Program-made: the position numbers and the translations under genes
Shown: positions 19,899 through 27,392 of the stretch, piece by piece
How positions within the stretch are numbered: the first letter of the stretch is position 1
Layout of the letters: each line of letters begins with the position of its first letter
Notes under the pieces: model-generated
Databases searched by the model: none
What the model was told of the DNA's origin: nothing
Seen by the model: only the letters and a program-made list of their open reading frames with translations
Assembly: GCA_038207085.1 (NCBI GenBank)
Contig: JBBRAE010000008.1
Location: 32,001 to 96,000 of the forward strand
Direction of reading: 5' to 3'
Source of the DNA: Armatimonadota bacterium
Lineage (GTDB): Bacteria; Armatimonadota; UBA5829; DTLH01
DNA length: 64,000 nt

Positions 19899-21174
19899 CG
19901 CCGTCGAGCATTTTGCGTGCAAGCTTGGAGTTCGGGTTCTCCCGAACAAGTGCCTTGAACTCGCTCTGCGCTTCGTCGTTCATCCCGAGCTTCTCATAGA
20001 CGGTTCCCATCACGAGGTGAGAGTCAGAGTAGCGCGCCTTCGCTCCTGAGAGTAGGTCGCTTTCGTTCTTTGAAAGTACCCGGAACCAGATCGCCTGAGA
20101 CGGGTTCCACTCGGCGTACTCACCGAGCCGCACCCACACGGTCCACTTGTAGTAGCCTGTGGTAAGCGCCTTTGTGGACTGAAACTCGTTCACGCTCGTC
20201 TCTTCGTACAGCGCCGTCGTGCCGTCAAGCTTACTTACTTCAACCCGATACTTGTCCGCTCCATCCACCGCTTCCCACTTGAAGCTCGGTGTGTTTGGCG
20301 CAATACTTGCGGGTTTGGGAGAAATCTTGTTGATCTCGATCGTGCCCTGCGGACCGCGCACCATATCGTCGGAATCAAGCATCGCAACCTGCATATCGGC
20401 CGGAAGCTTCCCTGTTCGAAGTTTCTTCTCAACCGCCGCCGCAACGACCGACACAAGATCGCGTCCACCGGACTTAACCCGAACCTTGCCGCCGACCTTA
20501 TCAACCGTGACGCTGCCGTCTTTCAGCACCGCAACGGGCTCAGGCCTTGGCGTTCTATGCGTAACCACCGGCCGCTCGATCTGATGAACAACTGTCGAAG
20601 GCACAGATGCGATCACCGTCTTTTTGGGCTGAACCGGCGCAGAGGCTATGATCCTTGGAGCCTCATTTGTCGCAACAGCCGTAGGTTTCTGCGGGCTTTT
20701 AACGACAGACGAGCTCGACATCACGAGAACCGCCGCAACCGCCGCAACTCCAATAGCCGCAGTCGCCGTGCTTTTCCATCCCAGCACCGTCCACACGGAT
20801 CTCTTACGTCCAAACATTTGGGGTGTGACTGTGATCGACGGCGCAAGCGAAGCGCGCGACCGTGCTTCCTGCAGCGTTTCAACGTCATCCCAGCAGAGTT
20901 CGCAGTTGGTGATATGCCGCTCGACTGACAGATACTCCACGCCCGAGAGTTCTTCGCTTGCGTAGGCCGAAAGTGTCTCGTACTGCGGGCAATCCTGATC
21001 CGCGCTTGCAAGCGAGCCGAGTTCGTACGCCGCCTTGGCATAACCAGCAAACCCAGCGATCTGTGCCCGGCAAGCCTCGCACCCGCGAACGTGTTCGCTC
21101 GCAGAAACGATCTCACCAGCCGGAAGCGCCCCCGAGAGGTAATTCTTCAGTTTTCGCTCATCAAGACATTGCAT
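19888..21174 (-). CDS. Anti-sigma factor-like protein with two zf-HC2 zinc fingers, one TM helix and an extracytoplasmic domain ending in a TPR-like helix pair
   Basis: 'HVRGCEAC' and 'HITNCELC'; TM 'AAIGVAAVAAVLVM'; C-terminal 'HLVMGTVYEKLGMNDEAQSEFKAL'. Confidence 0.85.
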   Translation of the reverse strand: MQCLDERKLKNYLSGALPAGEIVSASEHVRGCEACRAQIAGFAGYAKAAYELGSLASADQDCPQYETLSAYASEELSGVEYLSVERHITNCELCWDDVETLQEARSRASLAPSITVTPQMFGRKRSVWTVLGWKSTATAAIGVAAVAAVLVMSSSSVVKSPQKPTAVATNEAPRIIASAPVQPKKTVIASVPSTVVHQIERPVVTHRTPRPEPVAVLKDGSVTVDKVGGKVRVKSGGRDLVSVVAAAVEKKLRTGKLPADMQVAMLDSDDMVRGPQGTIEINKISPKPASIAPNTPSFKWEAVDGADKYRVEVSKLDGTTALYEETSVNEFQSTKALTTGYYKWTVWVRLGEYAEWNPSQAIWFRVLSKNESDLLSGAKARYSDSHLVMGTVYEKLGMNDEAQSEFKALVRENPNSKLARKMLDGVRQ

Positions 21175-21410
21175 ATCAGTAGCCTTCTACGTATTTCTTG
21201 GTTACAAGGTTTCAAGACGTGCCTGTGGAAAGATTCTTGCCAACTGATTTCCATAATTTTTCACCCGACTGCCTGCTCCGATTATCGGTTGAATAGCCTG
21301 CGTCCTCCAGCGCGGAAGCTCTCGTGCCAATTACCACCAAGTCCATTCCGGACTCCTGCGAAACGTGCTCTATACTACGTGCAGAGACATCCCAGTCATT
21401 GGGGGGCTCA

Positions 21411-21926
21411 ATGGACTTACTGGCTAAGCATTACGAATTGGTCGCGTGGCTGTCATTAATCCCGGCTCTTTGCCTGATCTATCTCATCGCGAAAGCTGCT
21501 CTGGAGTGGAAATGGACGCCTCATGCGGCCTTTGTGGTGGTTCTGATTTTCGCCGTGGCAAGTATACTGGAATTGACATTGATCCACACCGGCCTCGCCG
21601 GGCCGTGGTATGACTACATCGGACTCGGAGTGTCGGGCCTTGCTGTGGCCTGGTTCGCTTTACGCAGACGCAAGACGGCCAGTTTGATAGGCGGACGATT
21701 CTGCCTCCCCCTCATATTCGCATACGCGGGGTACGCACTGATAGATTACATCCTGGGTCATAGGTATAGCTACGACGACGTACATCCGTGTTATTATTCC
21801 CATCTGTGGTGGTCTGACTTTACGGCTCCGTTATGGGGAATTGTGGGCGCGTTTTCAGCAGTCCACCAGAACAGAATACGCCTAGTATGCTCCTGCGCAG
21901 CGATAGCCATATGGGCGCTGATATGA
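21411..21926 (+). CDS. Hypothetical membrane protein
   Basis: GGGGG before ATG at 21411; about five hydrophobic segments. Confidence 0.6.
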   Translation: MDLLAKHYELVAWLSLIPALCLIYLIAKAALEWKWTPHAAFVVVLIFAVASILELTLIHTGLAGPWYDYIGLGVSGLAVAWFALRRRKTASLIGGRFCLPLIFAYAGYALIDYILGHRYSYDDVHPCYYSHLWWSDFTAPLWGIVGAFSAVHQNRIRLVCSCAAIAIWALI

Positions 21927-21936
21927 CAGACCTCGC

Positions 21937-23289
21937 CTAACCCCACCGCTCCCGAACAATCTCCGCAGCTCTTTCTTTGTCCTCCGGCGCAAGCTTCCCC
22001 TCAAGAATCTCATTGATCAAAAACTCCTTGATCTCTGAGAGCACATGCCCCGCCGGAATCCCGAGAATCCCCATAATCTCGTGCCCATTCAACGGACTTC
22101 TGATACCGACAGCGTCGACCGTCGTCTGCACATGGGCAATGCGACGTTCCAATTCACCCAGATCAACCGAAGGCATCGCCGTGTTCGCAGCCGCTCTGTC
22201 GGCCTGCGTAAGCGAGATCAGCGTACGAAGATCATCCCCCGCCTCCCGAATCAGCCGCCGCACCGCCGCATCGCTCCACTCCGAGTCGTACTCCCCGACC
22301 CGCAGGTGCATATCGACGAGTTTCGCGACCTTCGAGACGACCTCATTTGGAAACCTTAGCCGCAAAAGCACCCGCCGGGCAATGTCCGCCCCAACGTGCT
22401 GATGGGTATAGAAGTGAACGTTCCCCTTGTCGTCGATCGTCCGAGTCTCGGGCTTTCCAATGTCATGAAACAGAGTCGCAAGCCGAAATGTGAGGTCCGA
22501 GTCCTCGGGAATCGCCTCAAGCGCCTTCATCGTATGCGTCCAGACATCATAGAGGTGGTAGATATTCTGAGTGACCCCGTAGGTGCGCGCAAGCTCCGGC
22601 GCAAAGTGGTCGAGCAGCCCCGCCATTCGCAGCTTCTCAAGCGCCTGCGACCTCCCCGGCGTCAAGAGCATCTTGGAGAACTCGTCCCGAATCCTTTCCG
22701 CGCTGATGATCTCCAGCCGCGCGGCCTTGCGCTCGATCGCCCGATAGGTCTCATCTTCTATCCGAAACCCAAACCGAGCCGCAAAGCGAACCGCCCGAAG
22801 CATCCTGAGCGGGTCGTCCTCAAACGTCACATCCGGGTCAAGCGGCGTTCTGATCACCCCCGCCCGGATATCCTCCATCGCCCGCCCCGTGAGATCGAGC
22901 ACCTCCCCGGTGTGCAGGTTCTCCATCAGGGTATTGATAGTAAAATCCCGTCGAAGCACGTCCAAATCAAGCGACGCGAACTCCACATCCGGCTTCCTGC
23001 TCTCCGGCGCGTAGGACTCGCTCCGCGCGCTGACAAGCTCCACCTGCTGCCCTGAGACCGTCACCATAGCCGTCCCAAAGCGCGGGTAGACGACCGGCGC
23101 GTGGTCGGCAATCCCCTTCTTGAAGATAAAGTGGGCAAGCTCTGTGGCATCCCCCTCTATGACGATGTCGATATCTTCGTCCGCGGGCAGGCCCATCACC
23201 AGGTCGCGGACGATCCCGCCGACCAGAAACAGCCTGCCCTCGTAATCCGAACCTTTAGTCGCCTCCCGGAGACTGTCGAGCGCCTTCAC
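21937..23289 (-). CDS. cca: CCA tRNA nucleotidyltransferase/poly(A) polymerase family protein with an HD domain
   Basis: 'LVGGIVRD', 'DIDI', 'RRDFTIN', 'EDDPLRMLRAVRF', 'ISAERIRDE', 'YDVWTHT', 'FHDIGKP'. Confidence 0.93.
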   Translation of the reverse strand: MKALDSLREATKGSDYEGRLFLVGGIVRDLVMGLPADEDIDIVIEGDATELAHFIFKKGIADHAPVVYPRFGTAMVTVSGQQVELVSARSESYAPESRKPDVEFASLDLDVLRRDFTINTLMENLHTGEVLDLTGRAMEDIRAGVIRTPLDPDVTFEDDPLRMLRAVRFAARFGFRIEDETYRAIERKAARLEIISAERIRDEFSKMLLTPGRSQALEKLRMAGLLDHFAPELARTYGVTQNIYHLYDVWTHTMKALEAIPEDSDLTFRLATLFHDIGKPETRTIDDKGNVHFYTHQHVGADIARRVLLRLRFPNEVVSKVAKLVDMHLRVGEYDSEWSDAAVRRLIREAGDDLRTLISLTQADRAAANTAMPSVDLGELERRIAHVQTTVDAVGIRSPLNGHEIMGILGIPAGHVLSEIKEFLINEILEGKLAPEDKERAAEIVRERWG

Positions 23290-23917
23290 GGGTCAACCTT
23301 TCTATGGATGAGTGGATCAGCTGCTCAAGCTGCTGCTCGCGCATAGTGACGGTGAGGTCACCGCGGCTTCGTTCGAGCACCCCGCGCACCATATCGGTAG
23401 TCCTTCGAAGCCCGCCGGTCACCGCATCGGGATAATCGAACGTGACGAGAATATAGAACACATCGTCCATAATCCCCAGAATCTGCTCCGCGCGCTTGAG
23501 GTCGCCCGTCCTCATCACATCGAGGATATGCCTGCGGCTCTCCCCGATCGCCTCACCAAGCCCGTTCAAGTACGACGCGCACTCGACCCCAAGCTCCTGA
23601 TGGCTCGGCAGCGGCATGTCTCGAGCAATCGCCGCCGTAAGCTCCGACTCTGCGTACTCTTTCTGCGCATCGAGCACATAGCCCGTATAGTAGATATCCA
23701 TGTGGTCGCGCAGCAGTTCTTTGGTCTCGATGACCTTCTGCCGTGCCTGGTCCATCAGCATGCGCGCCTCATCCCACTCCTCACGATGCGTAGCGCGAAT
23801 CGAGTTCGCGGACAGCCTGATAATCTCCCGAGAAAGTTTGAGCGCCCCTTCGCGAGCCGCGTTGGTAGCATCAAGCTCAGCGCGTATATCATCAGCAATC
23901 TTCTTCAAGTTTTCCAA
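23255..23917 (-). CDS. Translin/Trax (C3PO-like) family protein
   Basis: AAGGAG RBS and TTG at 23917; 'AREGALKLSREIIRLSANSIRATHR', 'AQKEYAES', 'YLNGLGEAIGESRRHILD', 'GLRRTTDMVRGVLERS'. Confidence 0.85.
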   Translation of the reverse strand: MENLKKIADDIRAELDATNAAREGALKLSREIIRLSANSIRATHREEWDEARMLMDQARQKVIETKELLRDHMDIYYTGYVLDAQKEYAESELTAAIARDMPLPSHQELGVECASYLNGLGEAIGESRRHILDVMRTGDLKRAEQILGIMDDVFYILVTFDYPDAVTGGLRRTTDMVRGVLERSRGDLTVTMREQQLEQLIHSSIERLTREGARQSPGGD

Positions 23918-23973
23918 TAGAAAGCTCCTTTGCTCAAAATCATCAACACAACAGCTTACCCTCATGTGACGCT

Positions 23974-24002
23974 ATTGTATCAAAGCAGGCAAGCGTATAC
24001 AA
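23974..24002 (-). promoter_or_regulatory. Sigma70 promoter of the translin-cca operon
   Basis: Minus strand TTGTAT-N17-TACAAT. Confidence 0.6.
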
Positions 24003-24115
24003 GTAGTGGCCGGACTCCGTCCCGGCCTGAATCTACCGGTATCCCCTCAGTGGTTCAAAAGGCAAGAGAGCCAAAAGAGCCCAAAACCCCGCTCCCACAA
24101 AATACCGACAAAACG

Positions 24116-24149
24116 AAAAAAAATCCACGCTCATTACAAGCGTGGATTC
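24116..24149 (-). terminator. Rho-independent terminator after grpE
   Basis: Minus strand GAATCCACGCTTG-TAA-TGAGCGTGGATT followed by a long T-run. Confidence 0.85.
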
Positions 24150-24182
24150 GTTTCGCCAAAACCTGTAATAAACCCGTTTCGC

Positions 24183-24770
24183 TTACTCCGGCAACACCGC
24201 GACTACCACCCGGGACGGCCGCACAACCTGCTCGCCCTGCACGTAGCCGGTCTGCACTTCCTGAATGATAGTGTTCTCTGGGTAGTCATTGGTCTCAACG
24301 CGCTGCACCGCCTCATGGACGTTGGGGTCGAACTCCTTGCCCTCTGCCTCAATCGGCTGGACACCCTCGACCGAGAGCACATCCTGGAACTGCCTGAGCG
24401 TCAACTTGACTCCCTCTGCGAGGCTCTCAAAGCTGTGGTTCTTGTCAGCAGCCGCGACCGCGCGCTCAAAGTTGTCGATGACGGGGAGGATCTTCATGAT
24501 AAGCTCACGCGAGGCAAACTTGATCGCCTGAGCATAGTCATCCTGATGCCTGCGCTTGTAGTTGCTGAAGTCCGCGAGCGCCCGCAGGTGCCTGTCGTGC
24601 TCCTCGACGGTATTTTTGCGCTCTTCGTCGAGTTCCAGCAGCATCCGGTCTAGCGCCGCCTGAAGCTCATCTACGGTCGGCGCTGCCGACTCCATCTCCA
24701 TCTCAAGCTCGGAGGACTCTTCGTCTATCTCAACTTTGATGGGTTCTTCGTTGTTATATCGCTTGCTCAT
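24183..24770 (-). CDS. grpE: Nucleotide exchange factor GrpE
   Basis: 'LRALADFSNYKRR', 'LPVIDNFERA', 'FDPNVHEAV', 'GYVQGEQVVRPSRVVV'. Confidence 0.96.
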   Translation of the reverse strand: MSKRYNNEEPIKVEIDEESSELEMEMESAAPTVDELQAALDRMLLELDEERKNTVEEHDRHLRALADFSNYKRRHQDDYAQAIKFASRELIMKILPVIDNFERAVAAADKNHSFESLAEGVKLTLRQFQDVLSVEGVQPIEAEGKEFDPNVHEAVQRVETNDYPENTIIQEVQTGYVQGEQVVRPSRVVVAVLPE

Positions 24771-24923
24771 TGTTCCTCACTTCTGTTCGTCAAGTATGCT
24801 CTTATGCCCTATACCCTCAGGCAGGGGCGATTCACTCACAGAAAAGGTGCTGGACACAGGGTGGGGGACGCTATCACGTCCCGACACAGGGCATCCAACA
24901 CCCTTGGTATATGGTGGTGTCTG

Positions 24924-25952
24924 CTAGCTTAGACTAAGCAGCGTCAAAAGTTCACTCAAGTTCTGCGCCATCGCGTTCACGGCCGAGATTGCTCGCCGGT
25001 AGTCCATTCTGGTCGGTCCGACCACTCCGATGGTCCCCATCTTGCGCCCGCCGATGGCATAGTTCGCGGCGACAAAGCTCGTATCTCTCATGTCGACGTA
25101 GGGGTTCTCGCTTCCGATGATCACAGTCACCGTCGGCCCCAGCATCGCGCGCGAGAGTATCAGGTAGAGCCTGCGCCGCTGTTCAAGCGCCCCGAGGATG
25201 CTCTCAAGGCGGGACACGTCCTTGAACTCCGGGTGCTTCAGGATATAGTTTGTTCCCTCAACGCAGACATCGTGCTCGGAGGCAAGAGTCTGCGCGATCA
25301 GACGCACCGTGCCAAGCACCTGAGCGCACACGGGGTGAGCGTCCTGCACGAGAGGCTCGACCCCCGACGCCGCCGCGTCAAGCGTCTTGCCGACGTACTG
25401 CGCGCTGGTCATATTCCCGATCCGCTCCACGTCCGCCGCGGTCATCCGCACCCCGGCGTCGATGATCCTGTGCTCCACGTGTGTGTCGGATAGCACCACC
25501 ACAAGGAGCAACTTGCGTTCGCCGACCTTGGAGAGCGCGACGTGTCCGATCGTCGTTTCGCTCATCGTGGGCTGGGTCGCAAGAGATATGTAGGAGGTAA
25601 GCCGCGCGAGCATCCGGCACGTCTCCGAGATGATGTCCTCGATCTCGCTTGCGATAGCCGCCGAATTGGCGTTCGCAGCGGTCGAGTCCTGCGTTGGCGG
25701 GTCCATCAGCCGGTCGACATAAAACCTGTAGCCCATATCCGATGGCACGCGGCCTGCAGATGTGTGAGGCTGACGCAGGTAGCCCAGCTCGGACAACTCC
25801 GCAAGTTCGTTACGGATAGTAGCCGACCTCACGCCAAAGTCGTAGTGCACCGCGAGAATCTCAGAGCCCACAGGCTCCGCAGTCTCAACGTGCTTATTGA
25901 CCACGGCCTTAAGAATCTTCTGTTTTCGCTCGTCCAGTGCGCCAAAATACAT
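24924..25952 (-). CDS. hrcA: Heat-inducible transcription repressor HrcA
   Basis: 'LDERKQKILKAVV', 'SATIRNELAELSELGYLRQPHTSAGRVPSDMGYRFYVD', 'GVVGPTRMDY'. Confidence 0.97.
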   Translation of the reverse strand: MYFGALDERKQKILKAVVNKHVETAEPVGSEILAVHYDFGVRSATIRNELAELSELGYLRQPHTSAGRVPSDMGYRFYVDRLMDPPTQDSTAANANSAAIASEIEDIISETCRMLARLTSYISLATQPTMSETTIGHVALSKVGERKLLLVVVLSDTHVEHRIIDAGVRMTAADVERIGNMTSAQYVGKTLDAAASGVEPLVQDAHPVCAQVLGTVRLIAQTLASEHDVCVEGTNYILKHPEFKDVSRLESILGALEQRRRLYLILSRAMLGPTVTVIIGSENPYVDMRDTSFVAANYAIGGRKMGTIGVVGPTRMDYRRAISAVNAMAQNLSELLTLLSLS

Positions 25953-25989
25953 ACGCAGAGTACTCCAGAAAGCTTACAAGCTCGACTGT

Positions 25990-26018
25990 ATGGTACCATC
26001 GGGCCAAGTGGGTGTCAA
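25990..26018 (-). promoter_or_regulatory. Sigma70 promoter of hrcA-grpE
   Basis: Minus strand TTGACA-N17-TACCAT with extended TG. Confidence 0.75.
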
Positions 26019-26048
26019 GCCCGCCGGCCTCAGGTGCCATGCTCGAAC

Positions 26049-26231
26049 CTACGCTTTCGGTGCTTCCTCCGAAGTCTCGTCCGAAGCGGTGTCGTCACCT
26101 GTGATGTTCTTCGAGGCCTTCTTAAACTCTTTGATCCCTTCGCCGAGAGACTTGCCAAGCTCCGGGAGCTTTCTCGCTCCAAAGAGGAGGATTCCCACGC
26201 CGATTATGATGATCCATTCCTGTGCACCCAT
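26049..26231 (-). CDS. tatA: Twin-arginine translocase TatA/E subunit
   Basis: 'EWIIIIGVGILLFGARKLPELGKSLGEGIKEFKKA'. Confidence 0.93.
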   Translation of the reverse strand: MGAQEWIIIIGVGILLFGARKLPELGKSLGEGIKEFKKASKNITGDDTASDETSEEAPKA

Positions 26232-26446
26232 TATGCTTCACCATCCCTTTTGATGACCTGCTGCGGTTCTTCGCGCTCGGGTTCCCCGGCGTCGTTTACC
26301 GTGGACATCAGGTCGTTTGACGCGCGTTTAATCTCGCGCAGGGTCTTTCCAAGCGTTCTGCCGACTTCCGGCAGTTTCTTCGGGCCGAACACGATCAGCG
26401 CGACCGCAAGTACTATTACCAGTTCAGGGGCCCCTACGTCGAACAT
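26231..26446 (-). CDS. Twin-arginine translocase TatA/TatB-family subunit
   Basis: 'MFDVGAPELVIVLAVALIVFGPKKLPEVGRTLGKTLREIKRA'; its stop overlaps the tatA start. Confidence 0.88.
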   Translation of the reverse strand: MFDVGAPELVIVLAVALIVFGPKKLPEVGRTLGKTLREIKRASNDLMSTVNDAGEPEREEPQQVIKRDGEA

Positions 26447-26459
26447 GTGTCGTATCTTC

Positions 26460-27392
26460 CTATTCCAGCCGCGTAACCCGCACATCGGGTCTGAGCTTGT
26501 TGAAACACTCAAGTGTGAGGCACGCGGCTCCGTACGTCATAGCGTTTCCAGCACCGGCGGCGACCCCGGCGGCGATTGCGTCGGCCAAATTGCTCCCACC
26601 GGCAGCAGCGTCGACAAATGCGGCCACAAGTGAGTCACCAGACCCGACCGCGCTTACAAAGTCTATCTTGGGCGGCACGGCAAGCCATGTCTCGCGCCCG
26701 TTGGTGACTATTGCACCCGAGCGTCCCATCGATACTACCACGACGCCTATGCCCCTGTCGACAAACGCCTTCGCTGCGGCGAGCACTTCGGTCGTAGTGT
26801 TTAGCTCAGAGCCGACAAGTGAAGACAGCTCTGCAGCGTTTGGTTTGATAATATCCGGCGCGGCTGCAATGCCCCTGCGCAGGTGCTCCCCGCTTGAATC
26901 AAGCACGGTGATCGCTCCGGCGGACTTGGCGGCCTCTATAGCGACGGCGTAAAAGTCGTCGGGCACCCCGGGAGGGGCGCTGCCTGATAGCACGAGGTGA
27001 CTAGCCCCGGGCAAGAGTGAGCGAATCTTCGTCAGCAGCGCGCTGACCTCGTCGGCGGTTACAAGCGGCCCGGACTCGTTCACCTCGGTCTGCGTGACGT
27101 TGGCCGGGTCGACTACAGCGATGCACAGCCTTGACTCGCCGACGGTTCGCACAAAGTCGTGGCGGATGCCTTCGGTGTCCAGGCTCTCAAGAATCAGATC
27201 GCCGTTGTGTCCGCCGATGAACCCTGTCGCGATCGCTTCGCGCGCAAGCGTTCCAAGCATCCGGGCGACGTTGATTCCTTTGCCCCCGGCAGCCGTCTTT
27301 TCGATCGATGGCCTGTGCATTCGGTCGATGGTGAAGTCATCGACCGTATAAGACTTATCAACGGCTGCGTTAAGTGTGACTGTGACGATCAA
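26460..27392 (-). CDS. 1-phosphofructokinase (FruK/LacC) family hexose kinase
   Basis: Probable TTG start before 'IVTVTLNAAVDK'; 'AGGKGINVAR', 'LSGSAPPG', 'IKPNAAEL', 'VGSGDSLVA'. Confidence 0.9.
   Translation of the reverse strand: MIVTVTLNAAVDKSYTVDDFTIDRMHRPSIEKTAAGGKGINVARMLGTLAREAIATGFIGGHNGDLILESLDTEGIRHDFVRTVGESRLCIAVVDPANVTQTEVNESGPLVTADEVSALLTKIRSLLPGASHLVLSGSAPPGVPDDFYAVAIEAAKSAGAITVLDSSGEHLRRGIAAAPDIIKPNAAELSSLVGSELNTTTEVLAAAKAFVDRGIGVVVVSMGRSGAIVTNGRETWLAVPPKIDFVSAVGSGDSLVAAFVDAAAGGSNLADAIAAGVAAGAGNAMTYGAACLTLECFNKLRPDVRVTRLE

Follow-up and report, generated by a model that had tools for sequence, protein, structure and literature searches.

A trax-like gene overlapping a CCA-enzyme gene in one clade of Armatimonadota: a lead to the function of bacterial Trax

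Trax and its complex C3PO have been well studied in eukaryotes and, as structures, in two archaea. So what is a Trax gene doing in a bacterium, and why should it run into the gene of an enzyme that works on tRNA ends? The question is posed by a stretch of 64,000 nucleotides (nt), here called the window, from an Armatimonadota bacterium (GenBank assembly GCA_038207085.1, contig JBBRAE010000008.1, positions 32,001 to 96,000 of the forward strand). In it a trax-like gene overlaps cca, which encodes a tRNA nucleotidyltransferase. The original prediction, made from the letters of the window, had read the two as a possibly undescribed bacterial pair for tRNA trimming, repair or quality control. We arrive somewhere close to it, with more reserve. 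The best overall explanation, which we favor with moderate confidence, is that a Trax-type nuclease is co-expressed with cca for turnover or quality control of tRNA ends. The features concerned, in window positions and with protein lengths in amino acids (aa), are:

21937 to 23289, minus strand: cca, encoding a class II tRNA nucleotidyltransferase of 450 aa that carries an HD domain at its C-terminus (Pfam)
23255 to 23289, minus strand: overlap of the 3' end of trax with the start of cca, 35 nt, cca beginning with GTG at 23289 (listing of open reading frames, ORFs)
23255 to 23917, minus strand: trax-like gene, 220 aa from a TTG at 23917
23540 to 23659, minus strand: span of the codons for four predicted acidic metal-binding residues (alignment to archaeal Trax, numbering of the 220-aa protein)
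23659 to 23657, minus strand: codon of E87
23650 to 23648, minus strand: codon of E90
23554 to 23552, minus strand: codon of E122
23542 to 23540, minus strand: codon of E126
23925 to 23930, minus strand: Shine-Dalgarno motif AAGGAG, 7 nt 5' of the TTG, read on the strand
23974 to 24002, minus strand: promoter-like TTGTAT, 17 nt, TACAAT, with TG before the -10 hexamer, found by eye, 85 nt before the TTG
24121 to 24149, minus strand: hairpin of 13 pairs followed by a T-run, resembling an intrinsic terminator, on the 3' side of grpE (terminator scan)

The first step is the identity of the upstream gene. That its product is a Trax/C3PO-type protein is secure, and it is almost certainly a homologue of the Trax nucleases. 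We base this on sequence matches in the PDB, family models and fold. A phmmer search of PDB sequences returns Trax of Archaeoglobus fulgidus (AfTrax, 3ZC1/3ZC0) at E 4.1e-21 over residues 25-206 of the 236-aa ORF described below, and NEQ131, the C3PO protein of Nanoarchaeum equitans (NeC3PO, 5JR9), at E 2.7e-6. Six PRK14562 models of NCBIfam match the product, the best being PRK14562.1-5 (E 1.5e-79), whose score of 266.4 bits lies under the equivalog cut-off of 291. An AlphaFold2 model, for which the input alignment held 37 diverse homologues, is made of helices only (pLDDT 97.2, pTM 0.90). Searched with Foldseek, the model retrieves A. fulgidus C3PO (AfC3PO) first (TMt 0.89-0.92, root-mean-square deviation 1.4-1.9 Å, 29-31% identity), then NeC3PO, human C3PO and translins, every top match having a probability of 1.00. 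The structural comparison with archaeal Trax thus bears out the fold that had been claimed. Of the hidden Markov models compared, those of PRK14562 match, whereas a Pfam search of the product gave no family, the Translin model included, even at E 10.

The gene itself needs a start codon. The longest ORF runs from an ATG at 23965 (23255-23965, minus strand) and encodes 236 aa. The true start is probably the TTG at 23917-23915, and we take 23255-23917 as the gene because of the spacing of the AAGGAG motif, the gene call of 220 aa in the protein collection, and the equivalent start in relatives, which is TTG, ATG or GTG, mostly preceded by a GGAG-type motif.

Does the protein keep what a nuclease would need? 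In the alignment with AfTrax, 'KEYAES' falls on the ExxE pair and 'GEAIGE' on the third and fourth acidic residues (DxxxE). The third position is Glu in this protein, Asp in wild-type AfTrax and Ala in the RNA-complex entry 3ZC0. Among the 37 diverse homologues (32-49% identity), E87, E90 and E126 are invariant, and position 122 is always acidic (26 E, 11 D). The claim that the acidic set is retained, with Glu where Asp is usual, is therefore upheld. For comparison, the accessible part of PMC5100593 gives the catalytic residues as Glu82, Glu85, Asp117 and Glu121 in NeC3PO, with two-metal catalysis, and as E123/E126/D193/E197 in human Trax. The same source describes AfTrax and N. equitans Trax (NeTrax) as homo-octamers in which six of the eight subunits adopt a non-catalytic, translin-like conformation. 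This last point is what one would cite for a protein that cuts nothing and serves tRNA or the CCA enzyme as a scaffold or chaperone, binding RNA in the manner of translin. We find that reading hardly credible: four acidic ligands kept through 37 diverse homologues argue for selection on catalysis.

Set beside known systems, the protein is closest to AfTrax/AfC3PO, its best match in the PDB by both sequence and structure. It shares the ExxE and xxxE acidic residues and, by the family model, is the single translin-superfamily member encoded in this genome; it differs in having Glu for Asp at the third acidic position, in its bacterial host and in the putative operon with cca. NeC3PO (5JR9, 5JRC, 5JRE) has the same fold (TMt 0.88-0.89), but identity is only about 20% and the sequence match is weaker than that of AfTrax. 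The eukaryotic C3PO, a hetero-octamer of translin and TRAX, has the same superfamily fold (human 3PJA, TMq 0.78) and the same catalytic set. Here, in contrast, there is no separate translin subunit, bacteria have no RNA interference pathway, and the link to tRNA would come from gene order alone.

A practical by-product concerns names. The PRK14562 models (NF011156-NF011161) are called 'haloacid dehalogenase (superfamily protein)' by NCBI, a name carried by many GenBank records, and JGI labels these same proteins 'translin'. Judged by the modeled fold, which is the all-helical one of translin and Trax and not that of a haloacid dehalogenase, the NCBI name is a misnomer for this family.

The second step is the partner. 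As had been predicted, it is an HD-containing enzyme of the CCA type: PolyA_pol (PF01743, 8.4e-24), PolyA_pol_RNAbd (PF12627, 3.9e-18) and HD (PF01966, 1.5e-10) all match above their cut-offs. Its best NCBIfam model is TIGR02692, tRNA_CCA_actino (E 4.7e-98), with 328.8 bits against an equivalog cut-off of 438.8; scores for the other CCA models and for PcnB lie far under their own cut-offs. Because the equivalog cut-offs are not reached, a specificity for adding CCA, rather than poly(A) or A, is a prediction from sequence. The protein has head, RNA-binding and HD domains in common with the HD-domain class II CCA enzymes (E. coli Cca and the actinobacterial TIGR02692 types) and differs from them in falling below the equivalog cut-off and in having an overlapping Trax gene in front.

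What would such an enzyme do here? It is encoded by the only cca-type gene matched in this genome, and all 43 tRNA genes found by aragorn end in CCA, as all those of E. coli do. Since every tRNA gene encodes its CCA, the enzyme would serve to repair 3' ends rather than to synthesize them. For the same reason the absence of RNase Z is expected: a search of the genome gave nothing over the cut-off, the best score being 33.8 bits against 293. RNase PH, RNase E/G, RNase Y and RNase J each score over their cut-offs. A genome with RNase PH and no RNase Z fits exonucleolytic 3' maturation with CCA repair. Among its tRNA genes aragorn also lists a tRNA-SeC (anticodon tca, contig C11, 19633-19729).

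The third step is how the two genes are joined. The predicted overlap of 35 bp is there in the ORF listing, at 23255-23289, with both ORFs on the same strand and in different frames, and no terminator lies between them. Also as predicted, the unit is set off from grpE by a terminator, the hairpin of 13 pairs with its T-run (24149-24121, minus strand). Terminator-like sites in the region number six against 6.6 expected from shuffles, so it is the position and strength of this hairpin that count, and not the number of sites. The claim of a separate promoter at 23974-24002 fares less well. The site is present, with its TG, but its -35 hexamer matches the consensus at only three of six positions, which is why the consensus promoter scan does not list it. 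Of 27 loci, 14 have a promoter-type match at 9 or more of 12 positions, located 48-113 nt 5' of trax; this is a raw count with no shuffle control. An Rfam scan of 21000-26500 with E up to 1 found no element, hence no known leader or riboswitch before trax. On this architecture, and on the conservation described next, trax and cca very probably form an operon in the clade in which they are linked, and would be transcribed together.

The neighbors upstream are hrcA and grpE (Pfam GrpE), which stand together at 24183-25952 on the minus strand and are closed by the strong terminator. Behind them come no dnaK and no dnaJ, and no CIRCE-like inverted repeat occurs anywhere in the window with up to three mismatches from the consensus.

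The fourth step is whether the arrangement has been kept. It is not a peculiarity of this genome: by coordinate comparison, 34 of the 40 Trax-bearing relatives have both genes in the same orientation, with trax immediately before cca. The exceptions are three genomes of genus g10 (with cca 33-37% identical), G017 (the two genes on different contigs) and two from family f5. In 26 loci from four families, taken with flanks of about 5 kb, trax and cca are the sole genes in common with the window; grpE and hrcA flank none of the 26, and the downstream anti-sigma gene recurs in three, all from the window's own family. The 35-nt overlap is identical in 6 of 13 relatives' loci, while in others the two genes overlap slightly or stand up to 87 nt apart, in a survey that leaves out figures for L010, L011 and L089. 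As far as our literature search reached, the pairing is new. Two observations on individual loci belong here. The cca match behind trax comes in two pieces in three places (G031 C10 3539-4883, G035 C3 1087981-1089325 and L012 6751-8092), pointing to a frameshift or to a mistake in assembly; and an apparent in-frame read-through from trax into cca in L011 was rejected, a TGA stop being followed by 15 nt.

Looked for more widely, the linkage proves confined to one clade, and the points that follow, here and in the account of other neighbors below, weigh against a shared role in tRNA. Of 40 loci sampled from the whole phylum, one, in family f4, has the linkage and 39 do not. In the scan of species-representative genomes, where some loci are too short to show neighbors, 5 of the 12 Armatimonadota-labelled loci among the matches listed are linked and 7 are not, and none is linked among the 68 listed that carry other labels (Chloroflexota, Actinomycetota and others). 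A tree of 126 Trax sequences, made by a quick method, rooted at its midpoint and supported by SH-aLRT alone (22 of 148 loci having been left out as duplicates, short matches or matches with a stop inside), gathers 24 linked rows into a single clade of 26 (SH-aLRT 92), the other two of which are unlinked and lie nested within it. The linkage pattern needs two changes on this tree. The linkage would then have about one origin, and for that reason the 34 linked genomes are not 34 independent observations. A cca orthologue occurs without Trax in family f29 (2 of 2 sampled, 52-56% identity; Trax in 0 of 11), and Trax occurs without an adjacent cca in most of Armatimonadota and in Chloroflexota. Across the phylum, neither gene needs the other. 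No fusion of the two was found among 14 longer Trax homologues, none of which has PolyA_pol or HD. Nor does Trax stand in for a missing RNase, a candidate role rejected because the genome has RNase PH, E/G, Y and J and lacks only RNase Z.

Could it be, then, that the order of the genes says nothing of what they do? A housekeeping nuclease may have landed upstream of cca once and never been separated from it, the overlap itself hindering separation. We regard this as possible, if on balance doubtful. The roughly single origin, the absence of the pairing from the rest of the phylum and the other phyla sampled, the change of neighbors from lineage to lineage, and the presence of cca without Trax in f29 and of Trax without a linked cca in f5 and g10 all speak for it. 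Against it stands the fact that the pair kept its order and strand while both flanks were reshuffled in 26 loci of four families, with an identical 35-nt overlap recurring in 6 of 13. A unit kept amid moving surroundings is real evidence for co-expression, although it is evidence from one evolutionary event.

What stands beside trax elsewhere makes a fifth step. In Dehalococcoidia the gene has thiE upstream, preceded at a greater distance by yraN, rnhB and mnmA, and hppA (a H+-pyrophosphatase) downstream. A same-strand block of mnmA, rnhB, yraN, a gene for a Zn-ribbon protein, thiE, trax and hppA recurs in Chloroflexota, the number of loci with a given gene ranging from 16 to 26. Examples from Dehalococcoidia blocks, by locus coordinates, are:

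L036, 2301-3422
L016, 3544-4182
L040, 4811-5188
L044, 5304-5984
L022, 6726-8762

Counted as recurrent neighbors, YraN/UPF0102 is found in 24 loci, RNase HII in 22 and the tRNA thiolase gene mnmA in 16. In eight other Armatimonadota loci trax directly follows a RadC-family gene (RadC JAB domain and UPF0758_N) of the same orientation, and the two often touch or overlap (L027, L039, L045, L100, L106, L121, L126, L127). Some Chloroflexota loci have PD-(D/E)XK or Cas4-like nucleases as neighbors (six and five loci). Outside the linked clade, then, the company that Trax keeps points as much to DNA as to tRNA.

One might conclude that Trax acts mainly on DNA or on RNA-DNA hybrids, as by-products of recombination, repair or replication, and that cca is incidental. 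RadC, RNase HII, YraN/UPF0102 and the PD-(D/E)XK or Cas4-like nucleases would suit such a role, and NeTrax alone is reported, in the accessible part of PMC5100593, to cut ssDNA and dsDNA as well as ssRNA and dsRNA. However, the Dehalococcoidia blocks also hold the tRNA thiolase gene, in 16 loci; the immediate neighbors there, thiE and hppA, encode neither DNA nor RNA enzymes, and the blocks may not be operons; and cca is the one tight, overlapping partner of Trax seen anywhere. We consider a main role on DNA quite improbable.

A single locus shows another RNA enzyme close by. In G037, of the sister family f5, rtcB follows trax on the same strand after 268 nt (L091 6890-8347, Pfam E 1.8e-184). 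As a second link of Trax to RNA repair it was rejected, since RtcB adjoins trax in 1 of 148 loci.

How widespread is the family? The original prediction called bacterial members sparse, and in this it was wrong. Among close relatives 40 of 41 have a Trax match, and the nearest homologues of the product are labelled Armatimonadota. Trax is present in 164 of 201 evenly drawn Armatimonadota genomes, with families f8 (0 of 18) and f29 (0 of 11) wholly without it, and in 71 of 121 sampled Chloroflexota genomes. A HMMER search of 1.84 billion cluster representatives (50% identity) gave 1,663 matches at E up to 1e-3, and a scan of species-representative genomes, with an alignment of seven Trax sequences as query, gave at least 550 confirmed Trax stretches among the 600 listed. 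Of 14 control genomes three matched the family model, all of them archaea; the model bacteria gave none. The family is near-core in Armatimonadota and common in Chloroflexota, and 'unstudied because absent from model bacteria' is a fair description of it.

That bacterial members are uncharacterised agrees with our literature search, which turned up no assay of any bacterial Trax member; nor did it give a paper with both 'translin' and 'Armatimonadetes', or any with 'COG2178'. Bacterial members of the superfamily have been recorded in print for Chloroflexi only (Gupta, Kale and Kumar 2012, as cited in the accessible parts of PMC5100593 and PMC5424206). These are of the same family, 46-57% identical to the product described here; they differ in phylum and in having thiE and hppA as neighbors where we have cca.

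Of the 14 longer homologues, Pfam records Clp_N in four and nothing in three, and one each has TMP-TENI, S-methyl_trans, Peptidase_S26, GAF, TsaD, Phos_pyr_kin, and an aldehyde dehydrogenase with an aminotransferase. The rare clusters in which Trax appears joined to Clp_N (four, P0272-P0275), ThiE (one, P0276) and TsaD (one, P0281), and which may be either true fusions or read-through gene calls, are all from short metagenome contigs.

We come to the last step, what the pair would do. By its homology the Trax product would be expected to form a hollow homo-oligomer (both solved archaeal proteins are octamers) and to cut nucleic acid in the cavity, most likely short or single-stranded RNA, by a two-metal mechanism with E87, E90, E122 and E126. 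We infer an oligomeric state, an RNase activity, transcription of the two genes as one unit, and any tRNA substrate. In one clade of Armatimonadota, trax would have become the first cistron and an HD-type cca the second, their frames overlapping, with the cca product acting in repair of tRNA 3' ends and not in their synthesis. The pairing would most likely be one of an RNase that cuts fragments or ends, co-expressed with an enzyme that rebuilds tRNA 3' ends. A predicted complex of two Trax copies and one CCA enzyme, made with alignment input, scored 0.03 and 0.27, where the mark is 0.32, which speaks neither for nor against contact between the two.

That the cellular role of Trax is tied to tRNA we propose only tentatively. 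The proposal is drawn from the place of cca as a repair enzyme in this genome together with two precedents: Neurospora C3PO degrades 5' pre-tRNA fragments (Li et al. 2012, as cited in the accessible part of PMC5100593), and clade I of archaeal SepRS is said, in the accessible part of PMC5424206, to stem from an operon with a TRAX homologue. Bolder still would be a dedicated module for surveillance of tRNA 3' ends, a caged nuclease with a CCA enzyme, and tRNA metabolism as ancestral to the whole Trax family. The nuclease would trim damaged or aberrant 3' ends, or destroy tRNAs marked by the CCA enzyme, and clear the fragments, while the CCA enzyme would rebuild the ends of tRNAs that can be salvaged. 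We think this unlikely.

What is new here is the membership of Armatimonadota in the family, a phylum not named for it in the literature searched, and a locally conserved partner in cca. Should the lead fail, the locus would be another case of a housekeeping nuclease whose neighboring genes depend on the lineage. Should it prove true, it would join the pre-tRNA fragments of Neurospora, the SepRS-TRAX operon of archaea and the trax-cca operon of Armatimonadota into one role. The pairing is a lead, and as such the most specific yet to the function of bacterial Trax: a concrete one, in the form of a putative operon with overlapping genes that has been kept through extensive genome rearrangement.

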